From Candidatus Saccharimonadota bacterium (GTDB lineage Bacteria; Patescibacteriota; Saccharimonadia; CAILAD01; BJGX01), in assembly GCA_046350735.1 (NCBI GenBank), contig JAXLZU010000001.1, forward strand, positions 307,950 to 371,949: DNA of 64,000 bases, written 5' to 3'. The translations under genes and the position numbers were made by a program. The notes under the pieces were generated by a model, which saw only the letters and a program-made list of their open reading frames with translations, did no database searches and had not been told where the DNA came from. The number at the start of each line of letters is the position of its first letter. Position 1 is the first letter of the stretch. Positions 42,401 through 61,139 of the stretch are shown here, one piece after another.

Positions 42401-42933
42401 TACAGCATATGGTAGATGATAAGATTCATGCTCGCTCAACTGGTCCATACGCTATGGTTACCCAGCAGCCACTTGGTGGTAAAGCCCAAATGGGTGGACA
42501 GCGATTTGGTGAAATGGAAGTATGGGCACTTGAAGCTTATGGCGCAGCCAATACACTACAAGAAATTCTTACTATTAAGTCTGACGATGTTATTGGACGC
42601 TCAAAGGCATATGAATCAATCATTAAAGGTGAAGAGATTAAAGGCCCACGGGTACCAGAAAGCTTTAATGTGTTAGTTAAAGAATTGCAAAGTCTTGGTT
42701 TGGCAGTAGACCTCGAGCGTAGTAAGTTGGCTACAAGCATTGATGCCGAAGAAGTTTTGGCTGCCCAGACTGACGCCGAAGTAAAAGAATTAGCCGACGA
42801 AGAATTGTTGGTGGGAGAATCGGCAGCCGAAGGTGAGGCTATAGTTGACCTAACTGATGCTGGAGGCGGAGACGACTTTGCTGCATTGGCAGAAGCAGAA
42901 TTAACCAAAGATATAGAATCGGAAGAGGTATAA
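39415..42933 (+). CDS. rpoB: DNA-directed RNA polymerase subunit beta
   Basis: 1172 aa; conserved rifampicin-cluster and catalytic regions (e.g. [25 protein letters not shown]). Confidence 0.97.
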
Positions 42934-42935: not shown

Positions 42936-45900
42936 ATGGATAGAGACACACTTATTCACGAACAACAAATTATCGATTTCGATGGTATTCGCCTTGGCGT
43001 AGCCAGCTCAGATCATATTCTCGACTGGTCGCATGGTGAAGTGGTAAAACCAGAAACCATCAATTATCGTACACAAAAGCCAGAAAAAGATGGGTTATTC
43101 TGCGAAAAAATCTTCGGCCCTACTAAAGATTGGCAGTGTTACTGTGGTAAATATAAAGGCATTCGTTACAAAGGTATAGTTTGTGACAAATGTGGAGTTT
43201 TGGTAACTCGTGCGATTGTACGACGCGAACGAATGGGACATATTGGTCTATCTGTTCCAGTAGCTCACATCTGGTTCTTACGTGGTACACCAAGCCCAAT
43301 TAGTCTGGTACTTAATGTCGGTATTCGCGACCTAGAACGAGTTGTGTATTTTGCTAACTTTATCGTTACCGATGTCGATGAGAAGCTAAAGACCGAGGCC
43401 CTAGAAGAACTCGATCGCGACTTTAATACAAAACGCAAAGATATTTTGCAGAAGCATCAAATAAAAGATGCAAAAAATGCCGAGATTTCAGAAGAAGCCA
43501 CCAAAGAGCTAACTGACCTCGAGACTAACTATACGAATGCCAAGACCGATCTAAGTAATTTGGCTAAATACCAATTGCTTCCAGAAGGTCGTTACCGCGA
43601 GCTTAATATGAAGTTTGGGCAGGTATTTAAAGCTGGTATTGGTGCCGAAGCACTTCAATTGCTTTTGGAAGAAATCGATCTTAAAAAACTTGTAAAAGAT
43701 CTTCGTAAAGAGTCAGAAGAAGCACAGGGACAAAAGAAGAAAAAAGCTCTTAAGCGCCTTAAGCTAATTGAAGGCATGGAGCAAGCTGGTATTCGTCCAG
43801 AATCGATGATAATGACTAATGTACCTGTTATTCCACCAGATTTGCGACCAATGGTACAGCTCGACGGTGGTCGTTTTGCAGCATCAGATCTTAACGATTT
43901 GTATCGTCGTGTAATTAATCGTAATAACCGACTTAAGAAGCTCTATAACCTACAAGCCCCAGAAGTAATTTGCCGCAACGAAAAGCGAATGCTACAAGAA
44001 GCTGTGGATGCACTTATCGATAACAATGCTCGACGTGATCGTGCCGTTTCTGCAGCTGGTAGTCGTAAAAAGCTAAAGAGCTTAACAGACTTGCTCAAAG
44101 GTAAGCAGGGACGATTTAGACAGAACTTGCTTGGTAAGCGCGTAGATTATTCTGGTCGATCAGTAATTGTTATTGGTCCGCATCTTAAGCTAGACCAGTG
44201 TGGTCTACCTAAGATGATGGCGCTCGAGCTCTTTAAGCCATTTGTTATTGGCCAGTTAATAGAAAAAGGCATTGCTCATAATGTAAAAAGTGCTAGTAGA
44301 ATGATAGAGCGAGCACGTACAGAAGTTTGGGATACACTAGAAGAAGTTATTTCTGGCAAATACGTGTTACTTAACCGTGCGCCTACCTTGCACCGTCTTG
44401 GTATTCAGGCTTTTAAACCAGTCTTAATTGAAGGTAAAGCTATTCAGCTTCACCCAATGGTATGTACTGCCTTTAATGCCGACTTCGATGGTGACCAAAT
44501 GGCTGTACACGTTCCACTGTCTGAAGCTGCACAGGCCGAAGCCCGAGAAATAATGCTTTCTAAGATTAACTTGCTTAAGCCAAGTAGTGGTGAGCCAGTT
44601 GTTAACCCAAGCCAAGATATTGTGTTAGGCTGCTACTTCTTAACCAGCGAAATTACTGAAGGTTTGGGTGCTGGTAAGGTATTTAGTAATACCGATGAAG
44701 CAATTATGGCTTTCCAAGAAAAATGTGTAGATTTGCGAGCAAAAATTAAAGTCCGCCTCGAGAGTGGTATTATCGAAACTACTCCTGGCCGTCTACTCTT
44801 TAATGAAATCCTGCCACCAGAAATTGATTTTGTTAACGAGACAGTAACTAAGAGCAAGCTAAAACGCATTATGGCACAAGTCTTTACTATAAAAGGCCAA
44901 GAAGCCACAGCAGACCTAGCTGATGCTATTAAGAACCTTGGTTTCCGCTATGCTACTAGCTCTGGTATCTCAATTGGTATGGATGACCTAGTTATTCCTG
45001 CCAACCGCGATAAATTAGTAGCTGCCGCCGAAGCAAAGACTATCGAGTATATTAATCAGTACCAACAAGGTCTTATTACTAACGAAGAACGTCGTGCTCA
45101 CACCGTAGATGTATGGAAGAAGACTGGTGAAGAGGTAGAAGCAGAACTAGAAAATACTCTTCTCGAATCTGACTCTACACTGTATGACGATTTGCAGTCA
45201 GGTGCACGTGCTAGTATTGGTCAGATAAATAAGATGAGCGGTATGCTTGGTCTAATGCTTTCTCCTTCGGGACGTATTATTGAGCTACCGGTAAAATCTA
45301 ACTATAAAGATGGTTTGGGAGTGCTTGAATACTTTATCTCTACGCATGGTGCCCGTAAGGGTCTTACCGACACGGCTTTGCGAACTTCAGAGTCTGGATA
45401 TCTTACCCGTCGTCTGGTTGATGTTGCTCAGGACGTTGTAATTACCGAACCAGATTGTGGCGACAAAGAAGGCTACATTATGACTCGCAGCGAAGCTTTG
45501 GCTACTGGTGAAGAAGGCTTGAGTGCCTGGATAGCTGGCCGTACTGCGATGAAGAAAGTTGTTCATCCAAAGACCAACGAAGTAATTGTAAAAGCCGGAG
45601 CTACAATTGGTGATGATGCTGCAAAGCTTATCGACCAACTCGAAATAGAAGCTGTGCATATCCGCTCTATTCTCAAGTGTAAAAGCACTTGGGGTCTATG
45701 CCAGCGCTGTTACGGTCTCGATTTGGCTAAAGGCACACCTATCGAAATGGGAGAAGCTGTTGGTATTGTAGCCGCCCAAAGTATTGGTGAGCCAGGTACC
45801 CAGCTAACCATGAACACCAAACACTCTACTGGTATTGGTGGTGATATTACTCAAGGTTTACCGCGTGTTGAAGAAATTTTTGAAGCTCGCGCACCAAAGG

Positions 45901-46727
45901 GCCAAGCTATCTTGGCCGACATTGAGGGTACTGTTAAGATTACCAAAAAAGATAATAAGCAGCTTATTACAGTAATTCCGCTAAATCAAAAAGTTACCGA
46001 ATACGAGCTAAAAGACATGAAGCCATCTGTTAAAACTGGTGATACTGTAAAAAGAAGTGCTGTAATGGCCAAGTCAGCTGACGGTAAGAAGACTATTAAA
46101 GCTGGTGGTAACGGTACTGTAAAAGTTACCAAAGATGGTATTACTCTTGTACATGAAGGCGGCAACTTGCGCGAGTATACTGTGAGTGAATATACCACTC
46201 TCGAAGTAAAGAATGGCGATACAGTCTCTATTGGCCAACGTCTTACTGAGGGATCGGTTAACTTACAAGACATGCTCTTGCTTAGTGGTGAAGAAGCTGT
46301 ACAGCGTTATATTATTGACGAAGTACAAGCTATCTACTTAAGTCAGGGCCAAACAATTGCTGCCAAGCACATTGAGGTGATTATTCGTCAGATGTTTAGT
46401 CGTGTACGTATTGAAGAACCAAACGATACAGATTTTATTTCTGGTGATATTGTTTCTACTACTGCACTCAACGAAGAAAATATGCGTGCAAAAGACAATA
46501 AGGGCAAACCAGCTACTTATGAGAAGCTATTAATGCCAATTACTAAGATTTCTACTAGTTCTGATAGCTGGCTCTCTGCTGCTAGCTTCCAAGAAACCAC
46601 CAAGGTGCTTATTTCTGGAGCCATGCGTGGCAAGGTAGACAAGCTTCATGGTCTAAAAGAAAACGTTATTATCGGTCGGTTAATTCCTGTCGGTACTGGT
46701 TTTCGTGATGATGAAGATAATGCTTGA
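42936..46727 (+). CDS. rpoC: DNA-directed RNA polymerase subunit beta'
   Basis: 1263 aa; zinc-binding [20 protein letters not shown], catalytic NADFDGD motif. Confidence 0.97.
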
Positions 46728-46761
46728 TTAACAGATAAGAATCTGATAGAATACTTTTGTT

Positions 46762-47187
46762 ATGCCAACAATCAACCAACTAATTCGCAAACCACGTGTT
46801 CGTAAAGTAAAGAAAACCAAGGCTCCAGCCCTGGGGAAGAGCTTTAACGCACTTAAAGTCCGCTCTACTAGCATGAACTCACCACTAAAACGTGGGGTTT
46901 GTACAAAAGTGTTTACCCAAACACCTAAGAAGCCAAACTCGGCGCTTCGTAAGGTTGCCCGTGTACGCCTTACAAACGGTATGGAAGTAACTGCCTATAT
47001 TGGTGGTGAAGGTCACAACCTGCAAGAACACTCTGTTGTGCTGATTCGTGGTGGCCGTGTAAAAGACTTACCTGGTGTGCGTTATCACGTGGTACGTGGT
47101 GCGCTCGACACCGGTGGGGTATCAGATCGCAAACAAGGTCGTAGCAAATATGGTACCAAGCTAGAAAAGGGCGGAAAGAGCGAATAA
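46762..47187 (+). CDS. rpsL: 30S ribosomal protein S12
   Basis: [12 protein letters not shown]...KKPNSALRK; 141 aa. Confidence 0.97.
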
Positions 47188-47663
47188 TGCCAAGAAAAAC
47201 TACCAAATCTCTCAAACGAGTTATTCCAGCAGATACTAAGTATCAGAATGTTTTGGTGCAAAAAACCATCAATAAGGTAATGAAAGACGGCAAAAAACGT
47301 CTTGCCGAGAACTTGGTTTATTCTGCAATAGAATCTGCTGCTGCCAAGAGCAAGAAAGAACCTGTAGAAATTCTCGAGCTAGCGGTAAAGAATGTTAGCC
47401 CAGCGGTAATGGTAAAGAGCAAGCGTATTGGCGGTGCTAACTATCAGGTACCTATGGAAGTTAGAGGCGATAGAAAAACCCACTATGCACTTACCTGGAT
47501 ATTGGATAGTGCTCGTAACAAGTCTGGTAAGAGTTTCGACAAAAAACTCTCTGCCGAGCTATTAGCTGCAGCCAATAACGAAGGTGATGCCATTAAGAAA
47601 AAACAGGATGCTCACCAAATGGCCGAGGCTAACAAGGCCTTTGCTCACTTTGCCAGATACTAA
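47187..47663 (+). CDS. rpsG: 30S ribosomal protein S7
   Basis: 158 aa with the typical S7 core; start overlaps the rpsL stop. Confidence 0.95.
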   Translation: MPRKTTKSLKRVIPADTKYQNVLVQKTINKVMKDGKKRLAENLVYSAIESAAAKSKKEPVEILELAVKNVSPAVMVKSKRIGGANYQVPMEVRGDRKTHYALTWILDSARNKSGKSFDKKLSAELLAAANNEGDAIKKKQDAHQMAEANKAFAHFARY

Positions 47664-47678
47664 GCAAATATCAAAAAA

Positions 47679-47701
47679 CCACCTGAAAATGGTGGTTTTT
47701 T
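47679..47701 (+). terminator. rho-independent terminator after rpsG (CCACC-TGAAAAT-GGTGG + T6)
   Basis: Hairpin followed by TTTTTT immediately after the rpsG stop; in most bacteria fusA follows rpsG without a break. Confidence 0.7.
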
Positions 47702-47718
47702 GATATATAAAAACCCAA

Positions 47719-48108
47719 TCATTGCCGATTGGGTATATTTGCACGTTGATTCTTGACTCTCTGATAAATCTTTATCCCGGGCCAGCTTAGTAGCCAGATA
47801 GTAAAGATTGGCCAGCAAAGAATTGCTAAAACTATTTTTGGCTGAGTATCTACCTGGATCTTGCTCCAGCCTCGAAACCCATAGCAATACTTCTGAGAAA
47901 TCCTTTTTGATAGTGAGAAGGTATTGTTAAGCCAGGCTGGCGTTCCACTGAATAGTACGATTAGTACACGTATGGTAAAGTCGGGATTAACAGATATAAC
48001 CAGAATTAATGTAAAGAAGAAGAGGTAGCAAATATAGGCTTTTACTACAGCAAAGGCAAACTCACCATATGGCGCATTTCTCCTGCTAACGAGCTCTTCT
48101 GTCTCCAT
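47719..48108 (-). CDS. hypothetical membrane protein
   Basis: 129 aa with 3 TM helices; minus-strand terminator hairpin CCCAATC..GATTGGG at 47711-47738. Confidence 0.45.
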   Translation of the reverse strand: METEELVSRRNAPYGEFAFAVVKAYICYLFFFTLILVISVNPDFTIRVLIVLFSGTPAWLNNTFSLSKRISQKYCYGFRGWSKIQVDTQPKIVLAILCWPIFTIWLLSWPGIKIYQRVKNQRANIPNRQ

Positions 48109-48186
48109 GTCGCTCCATGGCCTAGAGGTTCAAAGCTAGAATATAATACCACAAATTATTAATTATTACAATAAAAAACCCAAACT

Positions 48187-48591
48187 CTAAAGTTCGGGTA
48201 GTGCAGCTAAAAGTGCTGCATACATCTCATCGATGATTTTCTGTAGCTCATCGATTTCAAACATCTGACATTCTTCAGAAAACTGGCTATATACAGCGAT
48301 GTACTTTTCTCTTAACTCGTAACTGTCAATCTCACCAAATCGATTTTGTTCGAAAGCATGCTTGAAGGCTTCCTCTGCTTCTTTCAATATTCTCTGCTTG
48401 AGCGTTGCTTTGTATTTGAGTAATTCAATCTTATTGGCAGAATTTTCTTCTAATTCATGGAGATATTTTGCTTGGTAGCTTCTTTTTTGTAGCAGAGCTA
48501 CGACTATATTGGTAATAACTTCAAGAACCTTTGTAATACTGAGAAAGATAACAAGAGCAAAGATGACATTGATTTCATCGGCTGTTGTCAC
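48187..48591 (-). CDS. hypothetical protein with N-terminal TM helix
   Basis: 134-aa ORF. Confidence 0.45.
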   Translation of the reverse strand: MTTADEINVIFALVIFLSITKVLEVITNIVVALLQKRSYQAKYLHELEENSANKIELLKYKATLKQRILKEAEEAFKHAFEQNRFGEIDSYELREKYIAVYSQFSEECQMFEIDELQKIIDEMYAALLAALPEL

Positions 48592-48666
48592 CCGTAACCA
48601 CCTCCTGGTACAAGACTACGATATATTATCATAATATTAGTATTTAGTAAATAAAAAACCCAATCA

Positions 48667-49212
48667 TTACTGATTGGGAAGTATTTTGGCCAGAACTTGG
48701 CTGAGACGTGGTTCGGCCAGGCCGGTGCCATAGTTCCACATTAACCCTTTATAGTGACGGCGACCATAGCTACCCAGCTCAATGCCGGTGTAGTGTTCTA
48801 CTATATCGGTTTGTTCATACGGAAAGTATTGGTACTTTGTCTTGCAGTAACCCGTAAAGAACCCTAATGCAATATATGCAAGCTCCATAAAACTAGTTGG
48901 TTGATTCGTAATCTCGATAAGCTCGACTTTGTAGAAGTAGGGGAGGTGTAGCTCGTCGTATGCTTCATCTCGAAAACAAGGTGTAGTGCACTGATATCTA
49001 CCCTCAGAGAGCTCATTATTGAGTATTAAGTGCAAAAAACTTTGCTCGCCGCTGGCTGGCAAAAACCCGCCAAGTGTAAAGAATGGAAAAGATCCTTCAG
49101 GAAAAGTTGCTTCGTATGCTTCTCGACAAACCACCCAAGGAACATCAATTTTTTTAAACCCCGCTGCTTCATAATAGGCTTCGGCAGCAGCAATTTTGGT
49201 GTGATCAATCAT
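48667..49212 (-). CDS. minimal class II aminoacyl-tRNA-synthetase-like catalytic-core protein (AspRS/AsnA-type motif 2)
   Basis: 181 aa carrying all three class II motifs in compact form: motif 1-like AGFKKIDVPWVV, motif 2 CFRDE(x9)YFYKVELIEI (compare E. coli AspRS CFRDEDLRADRQPEFTQID), motif 3-like GTGLAEPRL. Confidence 0.5.
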   Translation of the reverse strand: MIDHTKIAAAEAYYEAAGFKKIDVPWVVCREAYEATFPEGSFPFFTLGGFLPASGEQSFLHLILNNELSEGRYQCTTPCFRDEAYDELHLPYFYKVELIEITNQPTSFMELAYIALGFFTGYCKTKYQYFPYEQTDIVEHYTGIELGSYGRRHYKGLMWNYGTGLAEPRLSQVLAKILPNQ

Positions 49213-49472
49213 TTTCTTGCTCCGTTCTGGAATGCGCGAGCAGTGATATTACTCATAACAATCAGGTCATTCAGACTAATCGAAGGATGTTCTTCTTGTA
49301 GATAGAGACGAATGGCACCGATGAGATCACTCAACTCTTGCAGAGCCATCAGACTACATTCTTGTTCGAGTGCATCCTCAAACTCCTCAAGTTCCTCTCG
49401 TATCTTACCGGCGCTCCCTGTAGGTTGTTTTGCAATATCTGCTAGGTGGTAACCTGGTTTTTTTACCGGCAT
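49209..49472 (-). CDS. MazG-like all-alpha NTP pyrophosphohydrolase domain protein
   Basis: 87 aa; IREELEEFEDA...ELSDLIGAI...LNDLIV pattern typical of MazG/EE-x2-E all-alpha NTP-PPase; ATGA overlap with the downstream gene. Confidence 0.45.
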   Translation of the reverse strand: MPVKKPGYHLADIAKQPTGSAGKIREELEEFEDALEQECSLMALQELSDLIGAIRLYLQEEHPSISLNDLIVMSNITARAFQNGARK

Positions 49473-50119
49473 ATTGCCCCTCCTTTGGTCGTAGTAATAA
49501 TTAGCTCATGAACTTGTGCAATCTTTTCTTCGAGTGGAATTATAGAGCTAATACAATGGAAATTATTTCTTAGTTTCCAAACGTCAAAAGTGAGTTGGTT
49601 TACTCGCTTTGCATCCCCCAGGGATTCATATCGGTGCTCATTACCGATTTTGCCAAACAGATCGGGTTTGCCTACTGCGAGAGATTCTAGAAAAATAACT
49701 AGGTTATAACGACGTTGTAGCGTGTTTATAGTTATATCGAATTGGGATGTGAAGCCAGAAGTATTCTCGGGATGATAAGCAGCGATGTCAATCATTCCTC
49801 TGTCGCAGATCATTAAACTTTTTCTTTCAAGTCTAGCTTCTGCAACTGCTAAATCTTCTAGTGCTAACTGTGTATGATAGACTGCACTCTGAAAATGTCG
49901 CATCCAGCTATTAAATTGTTCATTACCAAGAAACCTTTGTGCTGGGGGTGGTGGAAACCCACCACTAAGAATAAGTGTGGCACATTCTGGTACAAAAACT
50001 GCTTCTTCATTCAATCTATCTTTTAATGCATTTACCACGGTAGTTTTACCTGCACATGGACCGCCAGTAATCACTATTTTTTTCATTTGTCTCCTTCGGT
50101 TGTTAAGGTACTTTTCCAC
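49463..50119 (-). CDS. P-loop NTPase / small-molecule kinase-like protein (AAA_28, NadR-RNK-like)
   Basis: Walker A ITGGPCAGKTT immediately at the N-terminus; 218 aa; no second AAA+ features. Confidence 0.5.
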   Translation of the reverse strand: MEKYLNNRRRQMKKIVITGGPCAGKTTVVNALKDRLNEEAVFVPECATLILSGGFPPPPAQRFLGNEQFNSWMRHFQSAVYHTQLALEDLAVAEARLERKSLMICDRGMIDIAAYHPENTSGFTSQFDITINTLQRRYNLVIFLESLAVGKPDLFGKIGNEHRYESLGDAKRVNQLTFDVWKLRNNFHCISSIIPLEEKIAQVHELIITTTKGGAICR

Positions 50120-50225
50120 ATTATATTTACCTCAAAATTTTATCTAGTCTAGAGATTTTTACTCAAAATTATTTAACCAATCAATAAATTGACTCAAATA
50201 ATCTGTGGATATATAGTACTTAGTA

Positions 50226-50894
50226 ATGACACATCACATCCAGAAACAGATTTTAGCCAAACTTATTTCACATCCGTATTTGCGGTTTAGCAGGCTAAAG
50301 CCAAGCAATATTGAGAGTAACCACTTTATGTACCATCTTAAATCTCTTATGCGAGAGGGTTTGGTAGTAAAAAACGACGAGGGTTTGTATTTACTTAGTG
50401 CCGAGGGTAAACAGTTTGCCGATAACTTAAGTCTCGATACATACAAACCTCGCAAACAGCCTAATATTGTCACACTGGTCACTTGTCAGAACGAAAAAGG
50501 GCAATGGCTGGTATACAAACGAGCTCGCCAACCATTAATTAACCAAGTGGGGTTTGTATATGGCAAAGTTCATTTGGGCGAAACAGTCTCAGAAGCTGCT
50601 CATAGAGAGTTAAAAGAAAAGACTGGCTTACAATGCGAGCTTACCCACAAGGGCGATGGCTACATTACTATTTACGAAAGTAATGAGCCTGTAAGTCAGA
50701 TACTGTTTCATATGTTTTATGGAAGAAATCCGTATGGAGAAATTAAGCCAACCAAAAAGCCGGGTACGGCCTCGTGGGCATGGCAAGAAGAATTTGGCCA
50801 CCCGCCTTATATGGCAAGCATGCCAGAGCTAGCCCGACTCGCTAAAGAACCAGGTGAGAGATTCTTTGTAGAACTAACATATAAACCAGGTTAG
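50226..50894 (+). CDS. winged-HTH + NUDIX hydrolase fusion protein
   Basis: N-terminal wHTH-like region; Nudix box GKVHLGETVSEAAHRELKEKTGL (Gx5Ex7REUxEExGU); 222 aa. Confidence 0.6.
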   Translation: MTHHIQKQILAKLISHPYLRFSRLKPSNIESNHFMYHLKSLMREGLVVKNDEGLYLLSAEGKQFADNLSLDTYKPRKQPNIVTLVTCQNEKGQWLVYKRARQPLINQVGFVYGKVHLGETVSEAAHRELKEKTGLQCELTHKGDGYITIYESNEPVSQILFHMFYGRNPYGEIKPTKKPGTASWAWQEEFGHPPYMASMPELARLAKEPGERFFVELTYKPG

Positions 50895-50945
50895 AGATAT
50901 AAAAAATTGGCCTTATCTCTAATAAGGTAAATAAAAACCCCAACC

Positions 50946-51527
50946 TTAGTTGGGGGTAGTGGTGAGTTTTTGGATGACAAATTTGTCTCTGTCTCGATCA
51001 AAAATCTGCTTCATCCGAAATTCGATTTCGGAGAGCAATTTGTCTAGATCAAAACCCATTAGCCTATATTGTGACATGAGAGAATTCAAAATAGGGTAAG
51101 GAATTTCTTGCAAGAAGAAGCAACGATCATACGGAATTCTAACCATATCATTTGGATCATAATCGTCCCAAAATGACCACTCTACATATATTACTTCAGA
51201 ATCAGTATTATTCAATTTATTTGCAGCAATCATGCAAAGTGCATACACCAAATATTGTACACGATTCATGCCCTCAGTGATTTTTTGGTTTAGTTCGTTT
51301 CGCAGGGTTTCTGTACTGAGATCGAGAATCTGATCGTAGGTAAGACCAAGCTTCTCACAGTGCTCTACTACAACTGCAGAACTTTCTGGCTCGGAGAATC
51401 CATCTACTACGGCAATCTCCCAGAAGACACTGGCAATAGATTCTACAGCAAACACCGAATCTGGAAATTCCTTCTTTTTGGCAATTTCGAGTAGTATTGG
51501 GAGGGCTGCAACGAGTTTCTCGTCCAC
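50946..51527 (-). CDS. hypothetical protein
   Basis: 193-aa ORF preceded by a CCCCAAC..GTTGGGG terminator hairpin at 50934-50960. Confidence 0.4.
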   Translation of the reverse strand: MDEKLVAALPILLEIAKKKEFPDSVFAVESIASVFWEIAVVDGFSEPESSAVVVEHCEKLGLTYDQILDLSTETLRNELNQKITEGMNRVQYLVYALCMIAANKLNNTDSEVIYVEWSFWDDYDPNDMVRIPYDRCFFLQEIPYPILNSLMSQYRLMGFDLDKLLSEIEFRMKQIFDRDRDKFVIQKLTTTPN

Positions 51528-51607
51528 TTCTGGGCCTTTCGAGGTACGAATAGGTATGTATAAACATATACTTCATAGGTGTATTTGTCAAGTAAAAAGC
51601 CCCGGTG

Positions 51608-51844
51608 TTAACCAGGGCGAAGAGAATAGAGGGAATACGCTATCATTAACGCTGCAGATGTCCAAAATACAAACAAGACCCCTAGTAGTGCATTTCTATC
51701 GCTTCTGCGTAGATACTTGGCCATCTCAGCCGAGCTTGCGCCTTCGTAATTACTTGGCGATTTACGCCAGCCATAAATAAAGACAAAGCCAAGAGCAATC
51801 AATACAACTGATAGAAAAAGCAAAAAACCTATCCCGATACTCAT
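51608..51844 (-). CDS. small hypothetical membrane protein (2 TM)
   Basis: 78 aa. Confidence 0.4.
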   Translation of the reverse strand: MSIGIGFLLFLSVVLIALGFVFIYGWRKSPSNYEGASSAEMAKYLRRSDRNALLGVLFVFWTSAALMIAYSLYSLRPG

Positions 51845-52275
51845 CGTCGGTGCTTGTTTCGGTATCTGCGTGCACGGGCATTATTGGCTTTCTCTGAAGC
51901 TTCAGATGAGTCGATTACCTTAATTTCTGTTAGTTTGGGTAAAACACATTCCTGCACACAGTTAAAGTGCAAGTGGCAATGCTGCCATCTTTTCGACATT
52001 TGAATACGCCTCATAATGACGTGGTCAGCACCAATCGGAATCTCGAGTTGACAACAGTAACAACGATATGGCTTCTTTGCAAAAGACTGGGCGAGAAAGA
52101 TAGTGATGTAATTACTATCTTTTGCGCGTAATGCCTGTCGCTTATTTGGTAAATCAATAAACTTTTGCAAATCCTCTTCGGATGGTGGACTTGAAAGGCC
52201 CAAGGTATTCACCCCATTTCTCGAAGGTACTGATTTAACAGAAGTTATAATACATATATTTATACATATTGTCAA
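51841..52275 (-). CDS. hypothetical Cys/His-rich protein (start uncertain)
   Basis: YRCYCCQ...HCHLHFNCVQEC motif; the track start is TTG; the true start may be an internal ATG. Confidence 0.3.
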   Translation of the reverse strand: MTICINICIITSVKSVPSRNGVNTLGLSSPPSEEDLQKFIDLPNKRQALRAKDSNYITIFLAQSFAKKPYRCYCCQLEIPIGADHVIMRRIQMSKRWQHCHLHFNCVQECVLPKLTEIKVIDSSEASEKANNARARRYRNKHRR

Positions 52276-52306
52276 TAATATAATGTTATTGATAGTCTGG
52301 TTATTA

Positions 52307-52335
52307 TTGCCACATTTATAACAATCTGCTACAAT
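52307..52335 (+). promoter_or_regulatory. candidate sigma70 promoter for fusA (TTGCCA-17 nt-TACAAT)
   Basis: -35 at 52307-52312, -10 at 52330-52335; ~70 nt upstream of the fusA ATG. Confidence 0.55.
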
Positions 52336-52407
52336 TATTCAGAAATAGCCATTATTTGGCGCTTTTTCATTTTTGCAATAATTATAGAAGGAGAGAATAC
52401 AAACCCC

Positions 52408-54534
52408 ATGGCGCGCGATTATAGCTTAGAAGACACCAGAAATATTGGTATTATTGCCCATATTGATGCTGGTAAAACTACCGTTACCGAAGGTGTACTA
52501 TACCGAACAGGTAAGGTGCATAAAATTGGTGAAGTTCACGAAGGTGAAGCCACCATGGACTGGATGGAACAAGAACGTGAACGTGGCATTACTATTACCT
52601 CTGCTGCTACCACATGTTTCTGGAACAACAAGCGCATTAATATTATTGATACTCCTGGTCATATCGACTTTACTGTAGAAGTAGAGCGCTCTCTTCGTGT
52701 GCTTGATGGTGCGGTTACTGTATTCGACGGCAAAATGGGTGTGGAGCCGCAAAGTGAAACTGTGTGGCGTCAAGCTGATAAATATGGTGTACCACGCATT
52801 TGTTTTATTAACAAAATTAACCAAACCGGTGGTGACTTTTATAAATCGTTAGAATCTATTCACGAACGACTTACTAAGCACGCGTATCCCATTCACTTGC
52901 CAATTGGTTTCGAGCAGCAAATAAATGGTGTAGTAGACCTTATTAGTATGAAGGCATACACCTATAAAGACTACACTGACAAAGAACTTATTGAGGGTGA
53001 AATTCCTGCAGATATGAAAGAAAAGGCTGAAAAATATCGTCAGCACCTAATAGAAGCTGCAGTAGAAGCTGATGATGCAGTTATGGAGAAATATCTAGAA
53101 GGTACCGAGCTAAGTGATGAAGAAATAAAGACCGTTATTCGCAAGTCGGTACTACGTGGAGACTTCTTTATTGTTTCTGGTGGTGATGGCCGTGGTGTAA
53201 TTGTAGAGAAATTACTCGACATTATTACCGACTACCTACCAAACCCACTCGAGGTAACTCCACCGCTTTCTATCGATACCAAGACAGGCGAAGAAAAAGT
53301 ACTAGAAGTGAGCGATGACGCACCTTTTGCTGCGTTGGCCTTTAAGATTGCTACCGATCCATTTGTGGGTAAACTAGCTTTCTTTAGGGTGTATGCAGGT
53401 ACGGTAAAGACTGGTAGCTATGTGCTCAATAGCAGTACTGGCGAAAAAGAACGTATTGGTCGTATTGTACGAATGCATGCCAATAACCGCGAAGAAGTAG
53501 ATGAAGTATATGCTGGCGAAATTGCAGCAGCAGTAGGTCTAAAAGCAACAATTACCGGTAACACCTTGTGTGATCCGGGTGGAAACATTGTTCTTGAGAG
53601 TATTACCTTCCCAGAACCTGTTATTAGTATTGCTATCGAGCCAAAAACTAAGGCCGACCAAGAAAAGATGAGTATAGCACTTGGTCGCTTGGCCGAAGAA
53701 GACCCTACCTTTAGGGTGCACACCGACGAAGATAGTGGCCAAACCATTATTGACGGTATGGGCGAGCTTCATCTCGAGGTGATTGTTGATAGAATGAAGC
53801 GCGAATTTAAAGTAGAAGCTAACGTTGGCCGACCACAGGTAGCCTTTAGAGAAACCATTAAAGGTACCACGCAGATAGAAGGTAAGTTTGTTAGACAATC
53901 TGGCGGACGTGGTCAGTTTGGTCATGTTTGGCTCGAGCTTAGTCCGTTAGTAAAAACCGAAGATGACGAAAAAGGTAAGATCTTTGAGTTTGAAAATGCC
54001 ATTGTTGGTGGTGCGGTACCAAAAGAATACATTAAGCCAGTAGAGCAAGGTATTATTGAGGCTATGAGTAACGGTGTTATTGCTGGTTACCCTGTAGTGG
54101 ATATTCATGCCAAGCTTTACGATGGTAGTTATCACGAGGTAGATAGTAGTGAGGTGGCCTTTAAAATTGCTGCTTCTATGGCCTTGCAAGAAGGTGTCAA
54201 AAAAGCCCAGCCAGTTATTATGGAACCTATTATGAAGGTAGAAATTACTACCCCAGAAGAATCGATGGGTGATGTTATAGGTGATATTAATGCCAAACGT
54301 GGACGAATAGATGAGATGGAAGACCGAAGTGGCGCCAAGGTTATTCGATGTTTTGTTCCACTTGCTGAAATGTTTGGTTATGCCACAAGTCTTCGTAGTC
54401 TTACTCAGGGTCGCGCCAGTTATGCTATGGAGTTTGACCACTACGCCGAAGTGCCTGGTAATGTAGCCGAAGAACTCAAAGGCAAATACACTGCCGCTAG
54501 AGAATCTGGCGACGCCTCGGCTCGCGCTAGCTAA
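52408..54534 (+). CDS. fusA: elongation factor G
   Basis: 708 aa; GTPase motifs [18 protein letters not shown]. Confidence 0.97.
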
Positions 54535-54669
54535 TATATTGTTCGAGGTAATTCTAGGGCTATAGTTCTTACTTTGTTCGAACAATAAGACAATCTCAAA
54601 AAAAGACTCGTTCCCTGGGTCTTTTTTTGTAATAAAAAATCCCAGTTTTTCACTGGGAAATAGTACTCA

Positions 54670-55218
54670 TTATCCTGGGACAGGTGGAGGTAAGGCATTA
54701 GGAGAAGGTACTTTAATATTCTTGACAGCTTTTGCCAAGGTTTCGGCTTTTTGTCGAATCCAACCCTTTCCTCGCGGTATTGTATCGGCTGCAAAATAGA
54801 TAGAAACCGAATATAGCAGCCAACTCAGATCAACAAGAGCGTGAAATTTATCGCTATTCAACAGATCAGTAATTAGGAAAAAGAGATTAATAGTACCTAG
54901 ACCTAGCCTGATAACAATCCATCCATCCCCATTAAACTCACTTTTTAGCTTGGCATCAGAACCAGACTCAAGGTTCTGTTGGTCTTTGCGAAATAGCAAA
55001 ATTAGCATAATAAAAGCCATAAAGATAGCTAGCCATACTAACCCATCTAATGCATCAAACTTACCAATTGAGTACTTATAAAAGTAATAAAGTGTCGTAA
55101 CTAATTCAGAAAAAATTACGACTGCTATGGCAAAAAAATAGTTCGATCTACCAGTTAGCTTACACAAGAAGCTTAATGGCACATGCAAAATGCTTGCAAT
55201 AAATTGGTCAATTTTCAT
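54670..55218 (-). CDS. hypothetical integral membrane protein
   Basis: ATG at 55218 with GGGAGG RBS chosen over the longer track ORF; ~5 TM helices. Confidence 0.45.
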   Translation of the reverse strand: MKIDQFIASILHVPLSFLCKLTGRSNYFFAIAVVIFSELVTTLYYFYKYSIGKFDALDGLVWLAIFMAFIMLILLFRKDQQNLESGSDAKLKSEFNGDGWIVIRLGLGTINLFFLITDLLNSDKFHALVDLSWLLYSVSIYFAADTIPRGKGWIRQKAETLAKAVKNIKVPSPNALPPPVPG

Positions 55219-55445
55219 ACATCCAGCCTCCCTAGAAAGGTGCGAAAGTATCAAATACTATAGCATCTAAATATAGTTATTACAATAAAAATTATTATGC
55301 TTGCAAAATAGCACAAAAAGCGTATTGTTGTTCTTGCCTTCCTGGGTTGGTGCAACCTCGTAAAATCGCTACAGCGACTAGCGGGGGAGTGAAGCGGGCG
55401 GAGTAACCCACTTTTCAGCCACCGGCGAGTAGCAAGGAGATTAGT

Positions 55446-55718
55446 ATGAGCGATGAGCCGGATCAGGAAGAAGTAAGGCAAGTTAATGACGATGATTGGC
55501 GTTCTCGTCCACTAACGCGACGACAAAAGCCAGCTCCAAAAGAACCTGATGTACCTGTAACAAGTGCAGAAGAACTCGCCGCAGAGCAGCGAGAGATACA
55601 AACATTTTTGCAGGCCAGCCAGCAGGCCGGGGTAGACCCTAGTGTCTTAACCGAGCGTCTTGGAAAAGTAGCCGAGCGCCTTGCTAAAGAAGACGATAGC
55701 ACTAACTCTTTGGAGTAG
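55446..55718 (+). CDS. hypothetical acidic protein (GC-rich gene with GC-rich 5' leader)
   Basis: AAGGAG RBS; 90 aa, low-complexity acidic; followed by a CTCCTACC..GGTAGGAG + T6 terminator at 55727-55757. Confidence 0.4.
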   Translation: MSDEPDQEEVRQVNDDDWRSRPLTRRQKPAPKEPDVPVTSAEELAAEQREIQTFLQASQQAGVDPSVLTERLGKVAERLAKEDDSTNSLE

Positions 55719-55865
55719 TTTAGTCACTCCTACCACAACCGGGTAGGAGATTTTTTATCCTACTAAAAAAGAATAGGTGAGCCTCTCTTGTATAATGATT
55801 TATGCAGAAGAGCAATCTTATGATAGAATATGGTCTGTCCTCAAACCCTTCCATCAGGAGGCTAA

Positions 55866-56138
55866 ATGGACGGAATGTACCTCGACGAACCTTTAGAACG
55901 ACTCAAGTTTGCATTGTTTGTTGTGGCTATTACGCTTTTCTCAATAATTATCTGTGTAGGCTTTGTGGCCTGGATATTCACCGGTGATATCGATATTCTG
56001 GCACGTACTTTGCTAGTGTTTGTTATTGCAACCCTCATGGTCCGTTTCTTTTTTGGCTATGAAGCTGAGGGGTATCGACCATCTCCTCCAGATAGTTCTC
56101 ATCCTGATATGGACGTTTGGACAGAAGATGAGCTCTAA
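55866..56138 (+). CDS. small hypothetical membrane protein (2 TM)
   Basis: 90 aa; followed by a terminator at 56142-56169. Confidence 0.4.
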   Translation: MDGMYLDEPLERLKFALFVVAITLFSIIICVGFVAWIFTGDIDILARTLLVFVIATLMVRFFFGYEAEGYRPSPPDSSHPDMDVWTEDEL

Positions 56139-56141
56139 GTA

Positions 56142-56169
56142 TAGACCTTTGTTTGCAAGGGTCTTTTTT
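56142..56169 (+). terminator. rho-independent terminator (AGACCTTTG..CAAGGGTCT + T6)
   Basis: 9-bp hairpin with one GU pair, followed by TTTTTT. Confidence 0.7.
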
Positions 56170-56183
56170 CATAATAAAAGCCT

Positions 56184-56212
56184 TTACAAATCGAGAGAGA
56201 TTAGCTATACTA
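56184..56212 (+). promoter_or_regulatory. candidate sigma70 promoter for tuf-rpsJ (TTTACA-17 nt-TATACT)
   Basis: -35 at 56184-56189, -10 at 56207-56212. Confidence 0.5.
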
Positions 56213-56287
56213 AATACAAGCTATTCCAAGGCGATTTTTTATTGTCTAAAATAATATATTAATAACCCAAAATAATAAGGAGAAATA

Positions 56288-57469
56288 ATGGCAGATTTTA
56301 AGCGCGACAAACCACACGTTAATGTAGGTACTATGGGTCACGTCGACCACGGTAAAACTACCTTAACTGCAGCTATCACTCACGTTTTGGCAAAGAAATT
56401 GCCTAGTGATGTAAACAAACCAATTAAGTACGACGAAATCGATAAGGCTCCAGAAGAAAAAGAACGCGGTATTACTATCGCTACTTCTCACCAAGAGTAC
56501 GAAAGCGAAAAGCGTCACTATGCTCACGTTGATATGCCTGGTCATGCCGACTACGTTAAGAACATGATTACCGGTGCTGCACAGGTAGATGGTGCTATCT
56601 TGGTAGTAAGTGCAGCTGATGGTCCTATGCCACAAACTCGCGAGCACGTATTGCTTGCTAAGCAAGTTGGTGTGCCAAAAATCTTAGTTTTCATGAACAA
56701 GATGGATATGGCCGACCCAGAACTTGCCGAACTCGTTGAAGTAGAAATTCGCGAACTCTTAGAAAAATACGATTTCGACAAAGATGCTCCAATTGTTAAG
56801 GGTTCTGCTCTTAAAGCTCTAGAAGGCGACGCTGCATCAGAAGATGCCATTATGGAGCTCGTAAAGGCTATGGATGAATACATTCCAGAACCAAAGCGCG
56901 ATCTCGACAAGCCATTCCTTATGCCAATCGAAGACGTATTCTCTATTAAGGGTCGTGGTACTGTTGCTACCGGTCGTATCGAACAAGGTAAAGTTAATAT
57001 TAACGACGAAGTTGAAATTGTTGGTATTAAAGACACTTCTAAAACCGTAGTAACCGGTGTAGAAATGTTTAAGAAAATGCTCGACGAAGGTCAAGCTGGT
57101 GATAACGTAGGTATCTTGCTTCGTGGTATTGAACGCGATGATATCGAACGTGGTCAGGTACTTGCCAAACCAGGCAGCATTACTCCACACACCGAATTTG
57201 AATGTGAAGTATATGTTCTTAAAAAAGAAGAAGGCGGACGTCACACCCCATTCTTTAAAGGCTACAAGCCACAATTTTACTTCCGTACTACCGACGTTAC
57301 TGGCGAAGTAGAGCTTCCAGAAGGTACCGAAATGGTAATGCCTGGCGATAATATCTCTGTTAAGGTAAAACTCCTTGCTCCAATCGCTATGGAAGACGGC
57401 TTACGCTTTGCTATCCGCGAAGGTGGTAAGACTGTTGGCGCTGGTGTTGTAACTAAGATTATCAAGTAG
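56288..57469 (+). CDS. tuf: elongation factor Tu
   Basis: 393 aa; [18 protein letters not shown] motifs. Confidence 0.97.
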
Positions 57470-57484
57470 TAGAATACAAATACC

Positions 57485-57805
57485 ATGCCAGACGCACCAA
57501 CCAAGCAACGTATCCGCATTAAGCTAAAAGCTTATGACAATAAAGTAATGGATCAGTCGACTAAGCAAATTATCGATACCGCTATTCGTACTGGTGCGAA
57601 TGTAGCCGGGCCTATTCCTCTACCTACCGATAAGAAGAAGTACACTGTTAACAAGAGCCCACACATCTATAAGACCTCACGAGAGCAGTTTGAAATGCGT
57701 ACTCACAAACGTCTTATCGATATTACCGAGCCAACACCTAAGACGATTGATAATCTCATGAATCTTAGCTTGCCAGCCGGTGTAGACATCGAAATTAAAA
57801 TGTAA
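57485..57805 (+). CDS. rpsJ: 30S ribosomal protein S10
   Basis: [11 protein letters not shown]...PLPT...[21 protein letters not shown]; 106 aa. Confidence 0.95.
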
Positions 57806-57821
57806 AACATACAATCTAAAA

Positions 57822-57845
57822 GGGCTCCTCTAGAGGAGCCCTTTT
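57822..57845 (+). terminator. rho-independent terminator directly after rpsJ (GGGCTCCTC-TA-GAGGAGCCC + T4)
   Basis: Perfect 9-bp palindromic hairpin; its position is unusual because rplC normally follows rpsJ. Confidence 0.7.
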
Positions 57846-57942
57846 AGATTACTAATAAATTGATGATAGTACTAATGACTAATATAAATAACCTAACAAC
57901 TTCTTAGCATATAAAAAACCCCAGATTTCTCTGGGGTATAAA

Positions 57943-59355
57943 TTACTCTTTGTCAGTTTCTGCTTTTTCTATCATAGTACGAATATCTCGCTGCATACGA
58001 GCCTTAATAAAACGTGGAAGCTTATAGTAGCCTTCAATACTTGGTGAAATATGGGGTCGTACAAAGGTAAAACCTGGTTTGATATAACGAATTACTCTCA
58101 AGCCTGTTGTTTTTTCAAACTCTTCTAGCTCAATACGGTGCTTCGCGCTCATGTTCTTTCCATCGGGCAAACGTCGCAAGTGCCCAGTTACGTGGTGTGG
58201 CTCACGGGTAATTGCGTTCAAGATGGGTTTACGTGGCTCGACTTCTTGCTGGCGTCCAGCTTTGTCGACATAAGTACGGCGTATGTATAAGAAATGTTCT
58301 GACGAATCAGAATCTGAGTATGGTTGTCCCGACTTCGGCTCATGATCTGTCGAGGGTTCAACAACGATCGTGTCCGCTGTCACCAGATCGTGATAGACTG
58401 AGCAAATCAGAAATACAACATTTTTAAAAATATTTGAATCATTGGATCCTAACTTGATTTCATCATCAAGATCTGTGTCCGTCAGAAAAGCCTCTTCGTT
58501 AATAAAGTAAGTTGCCTTTTTGCCACTGCTATCCACAAGGAATACCTGAAACTGCAAGTAGTCATCAAACGTGGGAAGTACTAAGAGCTGTAGTTCTACA
58601 ATCGCACCATAACCAGAAAGTCTTACCCGTACACCTCGCTCGTGCACAAGATATCGTTGATTGTAGTATGCGTCTTCCAGAAATTTTCTTGACTCTATCA
58701 AGATATCTGAGTTAGGTTCTTGTTCTAAAATATGTGAATTTTGAACCCAAAGGTTAATGTCACGGGGGTCGGGGTAAAAATCAATAGCACTCTCTGAAAC
58801 CGTACACATATCAATTGAGTATCCTACAAGCTTTCGTAGTACATCAAATATATCGTCAGCGGTATTGAGCCTGGTTTTGTATTTCTTATAGATGAGCTGC
58901 CCAGTACTACGGTTCTTGCCTAGCAAAAATTGCTTTTCGTTACCGATAAGTATACGAATGGTGGCAAAATACAGCATTAACACATTCCCAAGAGTATTTT
59001 CGTATGTGCCTGACTCTGTTTGGCCAAGGGTAATGTGTGCAATTTGAATTAAGATGTTTAATTCATTGACGTTATCCGCAAAATATTCGGGCACCCCAGA
59101 AAAAAGTTGTGCAATATTGTGGTAATATTGTCTCTCAGCTTCATTGGTCTGCATACCGTTCCGCACATTTTGCTTGCATGCCTCGATGATTAATAGCAGT
59201 TCATGGACAACGGTTTCAAGATATTTATGTCCCCTGGCAAAAACTTCATCCTCACTAACAAATGGGTATTTTTGCATGTGTGTATCGACATCACTAAAGA
59301 GACTAACGCAAGTTTCTGCGAACACGTTGGTAACTAGGCGGGGTTTACGCCACAT
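57943..59355 (-). CDS. large hypothetical protein (471 aa), no recognisable domain
   Basis: ATG at 59355 with GGGGTGG RBS (the track start TTG 59373 is slightly longer); own minus-strand terminator CCCCAGA..TCTGGGG at 57914-57940. Confidence 0.5.
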   Translation of the reverse strand: MWRKPRLVTNVFAETCVSLFSDVDTHMQKYPFVSEDEVFARGHKYLETVVHELLLIIEACKQNVRNGMQTNEAERQYYHNIAQLFSGVPEYFADNVNELNILIQIAHITLGQTESGTYENTLGNVLMLYFATIRILIGNEKQFLLGKNRSTGQLIYKKYKTRLNTADDIFDVLRKLVGYSIDMCTVSESAIDFYPDPRDINLWVQNSHILEQEPNSDILIESRKFLEDAYYNQRYLVHERGVRVRLSGYGAIVELQLLVLPTFDDYLQFQVFLVDSSGKKATYFINEEAFLTDTDLDDEIKLGSNDSNIFKNVVFLICSVYHDLVTADTIVVEPSTDHEPKSGQPYSDSDSSEHFLYIRRTYVDKAGRQQEVEPRKPILNAITREPHHVTGHLRRLPDGKNMSAKHRIELEEFEKTTGLRVIRYIKPGFTFVRPHISPSIEGYYKLPRFIKARMQRDIRTMIEKAETDKE

Positions 59356-59433
59356 GATACCACCCCATGTCAAGGTCCTGGACTGAGCTTATATTAACAT
59401 AAATATAATAATTTGTAAATAAAAACCCTAGAG

Positions 59434-61095: not shown

Positions 61096-61139
61096 TTGCC
61101 AATCTTTAAACAGGCTTGCCTGTATATAAAAAATCCCCC

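Follow-up and report, generated by a model that had tools for sequence, protein, structure and literature searches.

Background

Few gene arrangements of bacteria are as conserved as the str/S10 cluster, and Brandis et al. (2019) have argued that its contiguity is under selection. Interruptions are known in which small blocks of unrelated genes break the conserved cluster in particular lineages, and in which the genes downstream need promoters of their own; those described lie between operons, as for the 3-4 genes found between str and S10 in Salmonella. Here a 64-kb stretch of a Candidatus Saccharimonadota bacterium (contig JAXLZU010000001.1; the whole analysed stretch of 64,000 nucleotides is referred to as the window) was analysed, in which breaks of the same general kind fall inside str (rpsG|fusA and fusA|tuf) and inside S10 (rpsJ|rplC). 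The main subject is the 4.7-kb block of nine genes located between rpsG and fusA, called the island in what follows. It also departs from the interruptions described by combining an old core, conserved across a large part of the phylum, with turnover of cassettes at the strain level; literature searches returned no direct report of str operon breaks in Patescibacteria. The block is likely to be a composite, old, lineage-specific neighbourhood of Saccharibacteria, made up of a vertically inherited core with cassette turnover at its edges, rather than the product of a recent insertion.

Individual parts of the island resemble other described systems. As in the NrtR regulators of NAD metabolism, a protein of 222 amino acids (aa) joins a winged helix to a Nudix domain whose signature is degraded, a conserved palindrome lies upstream, and the gene sits beside nucleotide-metabolism genes, including a member of the AAA_28 kinase family, to which NadR-type proteins belong. 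The winged helix-turn-helix (wHTH) is, however, N-terminal here and C-terminal in NrtR, so that the domain order defining that family is not found; the Nudix half is closest to MutT/MTH1 and not to ADP-ribose pyrophosphatases, the palindrome is the 9-mer TTGA[C/G]TCAA, no NAD genes are located nearby, and both ligand and DNA binding are predictions. Similarly, a 181-aa protein shares the arginines of motifs 2 and 3, and the lack of an anticodon-binding domain, with the tRNA-independent paralogues of class II aminoacyl-tRNA synthetases (aaRS), such as AsnA, HisZ, EpmA/PoxA and the amino acid:carrier-protein ligases. These are about 275-330 aa long, whereas the protein described here has about 180 aa, is always paired with an 87-aa MazG-like protein and belongs to a family common to Saccharibacteria and large or jumbo phages; no characterised member of this family was found in searches of the PDB and of the literature. 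Finally, like genomic islands and integron-like arrays, the block is a run of short, mostly same-strand, hairpin-ended single-gene units, present or absent between strains. Unlike them, it features no integrase, no att/attC-type sites and no tRNA target, its core appears to be vertically inherited, and its hairpins are ordinary terminators of 18-22 nt, followed by T-runs. The island is not a new kind of system, and the claim of a recent insertion does not hold. Its interest lies in the fact that breaks inside the cluster seem to be tolerated over the long term by an ultra-small, host-dependent group, accompanied by rebuilt promoters and terminators and with the gaps used for small-gene turnover, which amounts to a natural experiment on the importance of operon contiguity.

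Gene order at the split

In the map of open reading frames (ORFs), rpoB (39415-42933), rpoC (42936-46727), rpsL (46762-47187, + strand) and rpsG (47187-47663, +) form one unit, ending with the two ribosomal protein genes, which match Pfam Ribosom_S12_S23 and Ribosomal_S7, respectively, on L082, a public contig identical to the window. The next gene of the str operon, fusA, encoding EF-G, is located at 52408-54534 (+; also called on L082), leaving a gap of 4744 bp, and a further gap of 1753 bp separates it from tuf (56288-57469, +), which is followed by rpsJ (57485-57805, +) and, from position 62046, by rplC. The rpsG|fusA interval, 47664-52407, contains nine ORFs, eight on the minus strand (129, 134, 181, 87, 218, 193, 78 and 144 aa) and one on the plus strand (222 aa), and the same nine genes were obtained from an independent gene caller on L082. 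The minus-strand genes encoding an AAA_28-type P-loop protein (218 aa), a MazG-like protein (87 aa) and an aaRS-like protein (181 aa) are referred to as the trio, while the plus-strand gene encodes the wHTH-Nudix protein. The two other interruptions span 1.75 kb with three ORFs (fusA|tuf) and 4.2 kb with five ORFs (rpsJ|rplC). An earlier note, made from the letters of the window and called here the original prediction, had read the gene order in the same way: an str operon broken by 4.7 kb between rpsG and fusA, nine intervening genes, eight of them on the opposite strand, and cargo also at fusA|tuf and rpsJ|rplC. All of this was borne out.

A FusA-anchored set of 80 loci (L001-L080), taken from GTDB species-representative genomes, was used for reference. 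Within it, the rpsG|fusA gap is shorter than 300 bp in every record from outside the candidate phyla radiation (CPR), so that a gap of 4.7 kb lies far beyond the norm. As the sequence is of metagenome origin, the join might be suspected to reflect an assembly or binning artefact, i.e. a chimeric contig connecting unrelated DNA between rpsG and fusA. Contigs from NCBI and JGI, and many from Logan, encode an RpsG protein with exactly the residues of that in the window; over the 11 kb compared, JGI contig Ga0082021_1092598 and the window are 100% identical, and identity to other strains, including the metagenome-assembled genome GCA_964570715.1, is 95-99%. The nearest named homologues come from Candidatus Saccharibacteria. 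Since the same joins recur in at least 10 independent assemblies, derived from different samples and pipelines, and are found again in diverged relatives, a chimeric contig is excluded, and the probability left to it is practically nil.

Conservation and descent of the island

Relatives were sampled in three ways, by identity of RpsG, of the aaRS-like protein and of the Nudix protein. A FusA scan of the genome collection was saturated by the universal EF-G motif and gave relatives of at most 72% identity; close synteny is derived from exact-protein look-ups. The wHTH-Nudix gene was found between rpsG and fusA, or between rpsG and an ABC-F gene, in 12 sequenced loci (L091, L093, L097, L103, L104, L105, L107, L114, L119, L133, L185, L186) and in one record without DNA (P0130). 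The C-terminal region of RpoC, scored for ten of the 12 loci, is 54-96% identical to that of the window.

What accompanies the Nudix gene varies. The trio, the Nudix gene and the 193-aa gene are all present in L093 (RpoC 96% identical). In L091 (RpoC 97%) and L105 (fusA 96%) the Nudix, 193-aa and 78-aa genes are kept, and the trio is replaced by genes encoding proteins of 203 and 158 aa. L107 (RpoC 81%) features an AAA_28 gene followed by a CYTH triphosphatase in place of the MazG-like/aaRS-like pair, and then the Nudix gene, while the latter is accompanied by other cargo in L097 (79%). The full trio, convergent on rpsG, is found again in L103 and L104 (62-63%), followed by the Nudix gene and an ABC-F gene, and in L114 an ABC-F gene is likewise located directly after the Nudix gene. 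Among loci reached through the Nudix protein, L185 (Nudix 63%) shows an AAA_28 gene divergent from the Nudix gene within a 6-kb interval before fusA; L186 (51%) has seven small ORFs, then Nudix, PCC, Metallophos and fusA; L133 and L119 (48-51%) show the order rpsG, short gap, Nudix, ABC-F, fusA, tuf. In the P0130 record, recovered with an aaRS-like protein 66% identical, the trio and the Nudix gene precede fusA. The island is missing, with rpsG and fusA contiguous, in L094 and L100 (RpoC 79-80%), as well as in the outgroup CPR loci L001 and L003 (52-60%).

Identity of the Nudix protein to its relatives (95, 85, 75, 55 and 48%) tracks that of housekeeping genes: in pairwise comparisons a Pearson r of 0.86 (45 pairs) was obtained against RpsG plus RpsL, and a Spearman coefficient of 0.65 against RpoC. 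Judged from synteny, the wHTH-Nudix gene is the conserved anchor of the rpsG-fusA interval. A tree built by the unweighted pair group method with arithmetic mean (UPGMA) from the C-terminal region of RpoC, RpsL and RpsG nests L094 and L100 among the island bearers; this makes secondary loss of the block the likelier explanation for the two.

Taken together, the comparisons point to a history in which the wHTH-Nudix gene would have come between rpsG and fusA, on the strand of the operon, in a common ancestor of a large group of Saccharibacteria. In many lineages it is paired with a divergent operon led by AAA_28 and continued by the MazG-like and aaRS-like genes or, as in L107, by the CYTH triphosphatase. 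Most simply, the Nudix-centred core would represent one old acquisition, with vertical descent since, and some lineages (L094, L100) would have deleted the whole block, becoming canonical again.

Several observations weigh against such a history. The sampling was opportunistic and is biased, and the UPGMA tree, built on about 900 residues, is rough. Members of the Nudix family, at 31-54% identity, occur in other contexts; as many of them have no rpsG within 10 kb, the gene must have changed place on occasion, and this junction may have captured it more than once. The strongest named matches of the aaRS-like/MazG-like pair are, in addition, phage families, so that these genes may have come from phages.

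Search for traces of mobility

The original prediction had taken the block for a single 4.7-kb insertion event, and had held that the same arrangement conserved across the whole lineage, with uniform composition, would argue for an ancient rearrangement instead. The latter is largely what was found for the core, while the edge cassettes vary. The reading as one insertion is not supported: the core is present in Saccharibacteria with a C-terminal RpoC region only 54-69% identical, its composition is near background, and the contiguous relatives are nested among island bearers.

Family scans detected no integrase, transposase or recombinase domain in the nine proteins or in the variant cassettes. 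Short direct repeats linking 47664-47720 with 52276-52407, suggested in the original prediction as a check, were not found beyond terminator-like A-run motifs, and no tRNA gene lies at the island borders, the nearest being at 32794. The GC content of the island is 0.398, against 0.423 for the window, with per-gene values within the background range; GC content at third codon positions (GC3) is at or slightly above that range, and in tetranucleotide distance the island comes 9th among 119 windows and does not exceed the rpoB region. Integron-like attC sites were considered and rejected by eye, the hairpins being short terminators with T-runs.

A recently acquired island, such as a phage remnant or a mobile element landed in this species, would account for the strong matches of two of the nine genes to phage families, in which they are adjacent in about 250 large phage genomes, for the contiguous rpsG-fusA junction of L094, L100 and the outgroups L001 and L003, and for gene content varying between strains. 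It would leave unexplained the deep conservation of the core, whose divergence tracks that of housekeeping genes, as well as the missing integrase, repeats, tRNA target and compositional signal. Moreover, no phage structural, lysis or replication genes were found among the island proteins, the only strong PHROG matches being those of the aaRS-like and MazG-like proteins, and no close relatives of the aaRS-like and 193-aa proteins were detected in 2.9 million viral contigs. A recent arrival is, on balance, very unlikely.

Terminators and promoters

Downstream of rpsG, a hairpin with 16-nt arms (47668-47683 and 47691-47706), 100% complementary and separated by a 7-nt loop, is preceded by an A-run and followed by a T-run. 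It is kept, with compensatory changes in the stem, in the island bearers L091, L093, L097, L107 and L103. The original prediction had placed the terminator at 47679-47701, which corresponds to the inner portion of the same structure. In the region 46500-62500, hairpins resembling terminators are about three times as frequent as in shuffled sequences (36 against 11.8 +/- 3.2). Five of them mark 3' ends of minus-strand island genes (47713-47734, 48178-48199, 48659-48678, 50938-50955 and 51599-51618). At least three bidirectional terminators had been announced in the island; the hairpins are there, but the only clearly bidirectional one is that of rpsG, the others carrying a T-run on the minus strand only.

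The consensus-like promoter from which fusA had been predicted to restart, at 52307-52335 (+), was confirmed as TTGCCA-17-TGCTACAAT, i.e. TTGCCA-17-TACAAT, with 10 of 12 matches and a TG extension of the -10 element. The -35, the extended -10 and the leader of about 75 nt are conserved in five relatives (L086, L091, L093, L105, L097), and no such conservation is seen upstream of the -35. A promoter scan alone carries little weight here and speaks, if anything, against rewiring, in that promoter-like sites are not more frequent than in shuffled sequences (39 against 34.6 +/- 6.3). Further along, a terminator at 56143-56164 lies between fusA and tuf, and promoters precede tuf (56183-56211) and rplC (61885-61914).

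The rpsG terminator and the conserved fusA and tuf promoters argue against a single str transcript, and an str operon that is physically split and rewired is supported by these signals. The rpoB-rpoC-rpsL-rpsG unit would end at the conserved bidirectional terminator; the island genes would be transcribed from their own promoters, mostly toward rpsG, and fusA would be expressed from its own conserved sigma-70-type promoter, with tuf-rpsJ and the genes from rplC onward each beginning at promoters of their own.

Two further features were noted in this region. The fusA leader (52336-52407) is conserved in relatives down to about 79% RpoC identity; a structured RNA at this position was considered and rejected (fold z = 0.58, no Rfam match). 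The rpsJ gene is followed by an unusually long hairpin (57811-57852; 19-bp stem, 4-nt loop), marking the break from the remaining S10 genes.

Turnover of edge cassettes

Five minus-strand genes surround the core, and none of their products (129, 134, 193, 78 and 144 aa) gave a match in family scans. Comparisons between strains 95-99% identical showed that these genes are subject to turnover. Next to rpsG, the gene for a small hydrophobic protein of 129 aa (47719-48108), 95% identical in strains and 50% in L091, forms a variable edge cassette, ending in the hairpin at 47713-47734. The neighbouring gene (48187-48591; hairpin 48178-48199) encodes a 134-aa protein in which, by eye, a hydrophobic N-terminus precedes a charged, helix-rich region, and is present or absent between strains. 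In L081, L083 and L090 it is swapped for a segment carrying a gene of the 203-aa family, with breakpoints at positions 48181 and 48692 of the window, the first of which falls inside the terminator hairpin. In a strain variant a 203-aa gene is added directly after the hairpin at 48659-48678, and in L086 an additional Peptidase_C39_2-like gene (710-1342), equipped with a promoter and a terminator, immediately follows the terminator of rpsG.

On the fusA side, the 193-aa gene (50946-51527; hairpin 50938-50955) encodes an acidic protein of a narrow, fast-evolving orphan family, with only 7 matches in 1.84 billion representative proteins; its identity is 53-54% in relatives where RpoC is 96-97% identical and neighbouring genes about 95%. 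It is followed by the gene for a 78-aa protein with two hydrophobic helices by eye (51608-51844; hairpin 51599-51618), 77-85% identical in L091 and L086, and by that for a Cys/His-rich protein of 144 aa (51841-52275; 123 aa according to the gene caller). The latter is specific to the species or strain group: it is absent from L086, L091 and L093, and in L086 the segment corresponding to 51804-52305 is missing. Around the core, short single-gene cassettes have been gained, lost and replaced even between strains 95-99% identical, each ending in its own hairpin terminator and most of them encoding small orphan or membrane proteins.

The winged-helix/Nudix gene and its control region

The 222-aa protein encoded at 50226-50894 (+) matches Pfam NUDIX (E 9e-12) and, weakly, wHTH families. 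In the AlphaFold2 model, for which the predicted local distance difference test (pLDDT) gives 94, a wHTH domain occupies residues 1-66 and a Nudix domain residues ~75-220; Foldseek matched MTH1/MutT over the Nudix half only. The Nudix box reads R127-E128-L-x-E131-K132, with K132, the same in all 54 sequences compared, standing where REUxEE has its second Glu, a residue reported as catalytic in the published work on MutT. The catalytic signature is degenerate, as in regulators of the NrtR type.

The 106 bp separating the AAA_28 and Nudix genes (50120-50225) form a divergent control region, kept even where the minus-strand cargo differs (L091, L097, L107), and the divergent AAA_28/Nudix arrangement itself was found in L093, L107, L103, L185, L127, L129, L160 and on the P0130 contig. 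Within the region, an exact palindrome, TTGACTCAA (50189-50197), at the same time forms the -35 of the Nudix promoter (50189-50217), and degenerate copies of it are located at 50158 and ~50126. A second palindrome, ATCTAGTCTAGA, lies at 50142-50153, and mirrored ATATCCACA / TGTGGATAT-like elements are also present. As the -10 ends 8 nt before the ATG, the promoter suggests a leaderless Nudix mRNA.

The 200 bp upstream of the Nudix gene were surveyed in 63 family loci (including L105-L163, L185 and L186). TTGA[C/G]TCAA was found in 58 of the 63, whatever the genomic context, in either orientation and mostly 19-52 nt before the start codon; for the 8-mers that compose it, about 2.5 loci would be expected, and 58-59 contain them. 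The copy at 50189 is the sole exact one in the 64 kb. No sign of a wider regulon was seen in the window, TTGACTCAA being not enriched at up to one mismatch (16 sites against 18 expected). The conservation of the motif suggests that the Nudix protein is an autoregulator, binding the palindrome TTGA[C/G]TCAA as its candidate operator.

The minus-strand trio and its phage counterparts

The minus-strand operon is led by the AAA_28 gene (49463-50119; Pfam AAA_28, E 6.5e-19), encoding a P-loop, nucleoside/nucleotide-kinase-like protein of 218 aa from a GTG start, or of 207 aa from the likelier ATG at 50086; family scans and a PDB sequence search revealed weak similarity to thymidylate kinase. In L107 (8667-9862) the AAA_28 gene is coupled to the CYTH triphosphatase gene, an arrangement that suggests interchangeable triphosphate-handling partners.

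The second gene (49209-49472) encodes the 87-aa MazG/HisE-like protein, a putative all-alpha nucleoside triphosphate (NTP) pyrophosphohydrolase. It fits, over its full length, phrog_6408 (E 5e-34), a family without assigned function, and displays the EXXE...EXXD pattern typical of MazG-like NTP pyrophosphohydrolases (E27-E30, E46-D49). An overlap of 4 bp with the start of the aaRS-like gene makes translational coupling of the two probable.

The aaRS-like gene (48667-49212; hairpin 48659-48678) encodes a minimal class II catalytic core of 181 aa, matching phrog_4806 (E 1e-35) and reaching 19.9 bits against Pfam tRNA-synt_2d, for which the cut-off is 19.8. The AlphaFold2 model has a pLDDT of 95.5, and the top Foldseek matches in the PDB are the cores of PylRS, SepRS, PheRS-alpha and SerRS, with a query-normalised TM-score of ~0.73 and E ~4e-9. 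R81 of motif 2 (FRDE) and R169 of motif 3 (GLAEPR) are invariant in 65 aaRS-like homologues. According to the model and to the Foldseek alignments the catalytic core spans the whole chain, and no tRNA- or anticodon-binding domain is present. The modelled protein, although it shows the fold and the motifs of class II, is probably no tRNA synthetase; by analogy with the paralogues mentioned above, the fold predicts ATP-dependent activation of a carboxylate. PDB sequence searches with the aaRS-like and MazG-like proteins returned nothing useful, leaving the pair without a solved structure.

The two genes are adjacent, and in the same order, in the large phage genomes mentioned above. Among them are Phapecoctavirus, jumbo phages of Caulobacter and Brevundimonas, and uncultured huge phages, and their proteins are 35-59% identical to those of the window. 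In these phages (loci L101 and L102) the pair has either helicase and ribonucleotide reductase genes or genes for glycosyltransferase and lysis in its vicinity. No paper characterising the pair was found in literature searches. A natural class II aaRS core of ~180 aa and an 87-aa MazG-like protein form a fixed pair common to Saccharibacteria and to large or jumbo phages.

Possible functions of the core

The genes of the core may be read together as a ligand-sensing regulator and the pathway that it controls. The wHTH-Nudix protein would probably sense a nucleotide-type ligand and bind TTGA[C/G]TCAA, overlapping its own -35; so bound, it would regulate both the gene that encodes it and the divergent operon for kinase, NTP pyrophosphatase and adenylate-forming ligase. 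The chemistry of these proteins (P-loop kinase, MazG-like protein or CYTH triphosphatase, adenylate-forming ligase, MutT-like sensor) would suit nucleotide salvage or sanitation of the nucleotide pool, and this is offered as a tentative reading of the trio and of the core. Saccharibacteria are not known to make nucleotides de novo, and salvage or sanitation would for this reason suit the organism. The reading is weakened by three observations: TTGACT is itself a good -35 hexamer, and the palindrome may be no operator but part of the promoter; support for the MazG assignment is weak, the match of the 87-aa protein to Pfam PRA-PH (E 0.035) being below cut-off; and enzyme functions are read from fold and family only.

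A more specific version, which we regard as possible but rather doubtful, sees in the interval an uncharacterised regulated pathway, composed of the wHTH-Nudix autoregulator with its 9-bp operator, the P-loop kinase, the MazG-like pyrophosphatase and the ~180-aa aaRS-like adenylating enzyme. An aminoacyl- or acyl-nucleotide would be made or destroyed, or salvaged nucleotides would be sanitised, and the position of the genes inside the translation operon would stem from a link to the translational or nucleotide state of an obligate epibiont. Two testable leads emerge in any case, a Nudix-type regulator with a well-conserved candidate operator and a minimal aaRS-like/MazG-like pair shared with large phages.

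The location between rpsG and fusA also invites the explanation that the interval genes are additions to the translation operon, kept there for co-regulation, with the Nudix, ABC-F and aaRS-like proteins acting on ribosomes, elongation factors or tRNA; in one variant, a translation factor might be the target of aminoacylation by the aaRS-like enzyme, on the model of EpmA and EF-P. The aaRS fold of the 181-aa enzyme fits this idea, as do the adjacency to rpsG, kept over deep divergence, and the ABC-F gene, a member of a ribosome-binding factor family, which is co-directional between Nudix and fusA in L119 and L133 and directly follows Nudix in L103, L104 and L114. Saccharibacteria genomes are, however, reported as highly syntenic overall, so that a conserved neighbourhood says little about function. 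The majority of the island genes lie on the other strand and have promoters and terminators of their own, and no ABC-F gene is present in the 64 kb of the window. In phages, the pair is surrounded by helicase and ribonucleotide reductase genes instead of genes for translation, and a CYTH triphosphatase as the alternative partner of AAA_28 points to nucleotide chemistry. A role as part of the translation operon is considered unlikely.

Alternatively, the junctions might be a hot spot of defence or conflict, with variable cassettes directed against phages or serving host interaction, and the Nudix, MazG and kinase genes a nucleotide-depleting or signal-degrading immune module. Small orphan genes that turn over and diverge fast would be expected in such a place, the Nudix domain matches the PADLOC candidate PDC-S07 (E 6.6e-7), a C39-peptidase-like gene is present in one strain, and the phage-borne aaRS-like/MazG-like pair could be a counter-measure. 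PADLOC returned single weak hits only, this one and P-loop matches, and no complete defence system; family scans found no nucleases, TIR, Sir2 or similar effector domains. The core, moreover, appears stable and vertically inherited, unlike typical defence islands. A defence module is therefore judged quite unlikely, and nucleotide salvage or pool sanitation is retained as the tentative functional reading of the core.

Cargo at the other junctions

The fusA|tuf interval (54535-56287) contains a minus-strand gene of 194 aa, found only in the window and in its 95-99% identical strain variants L081, L082 and L086, and two plus-strand genes of 90 aa, both conserved in L091 and L093. In relatives, the same interval holds from one to many small ORFs, differing between lineages. 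In the 80-locus set, fusA|tuf gaps of 0.5-3.6 kb are frequent among the records nearest the window, while those of other phyla do not exceed 422 bp; the nearest records were taken as Patescibacteria, several of them carrying the label 'uncultured Gammaproteobacteria', which looks like mislabelling.

The rpsJ|rplC interval (57943-62045) is occupied by minus-strand genes of 476, 159 and 150 aa and by two plus-strand genes, one of 144 aa, DUF4870/MamF_MmsF-like, and one of 170 aa. The DUF4870 gene is kept at this place in L091, L097 and L100, and in relatives it is accompanied by variable genes, e.g. ABC-F, HAD, Nudix and CYTH.

Different cargo was found at the same junctions in several relatives (L005, L185, L186, L097, L107, L100); in L005, another Saccharibacterium, a GH13-like gene lies in rpsG|fusA and no Nudix gene is present. 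The view that these junctions are preferred retention sites in the lineage, put forward in the original prediction, fits cargo at all three junctions, its variation between relatives and the strain-polymorphic cassettes. Tolerance or retention of cargo at the str/S10 junctions of this lineage is supported by the gene orders compared. The three junctions are places to look for strain-specific genes of Saccharibacteria, some of which may be host-interaction genes.

A few minor observations concern the cargo and the rest of the window. The ABC-F-type ATPase gene moves between junctions: some lineages have it between the Nudix gene and fusA (L119, 4483-6132; L133, 10898-12820; L103, 4617-6275; L104, 4958-6637), and others after rpsJ (L093, 18646-20292; L100, 15056-16699). 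Two genes deviate in composition from the background (GC 0.428 +/- 0.017, GC3 0.347 +/- 0.025), namely the 150-aa gene at 60073-60525 (GC 0.525, GC3 0.62) and the first 90-aa gene at 55446-55718 (GC 0.505); both are nevertheless conserved in L091. Finally, about 900 bp at 34120-35050 reach 56-62% GC in a genome of 42% GC. The ORFs of this segment gave no Pfam match, and Rfam matches were at chance level only. ARAGORN reports an odd 'tRNA-???' at 34849-34918, and the segment could be a large structured RNA or foreign DNA.

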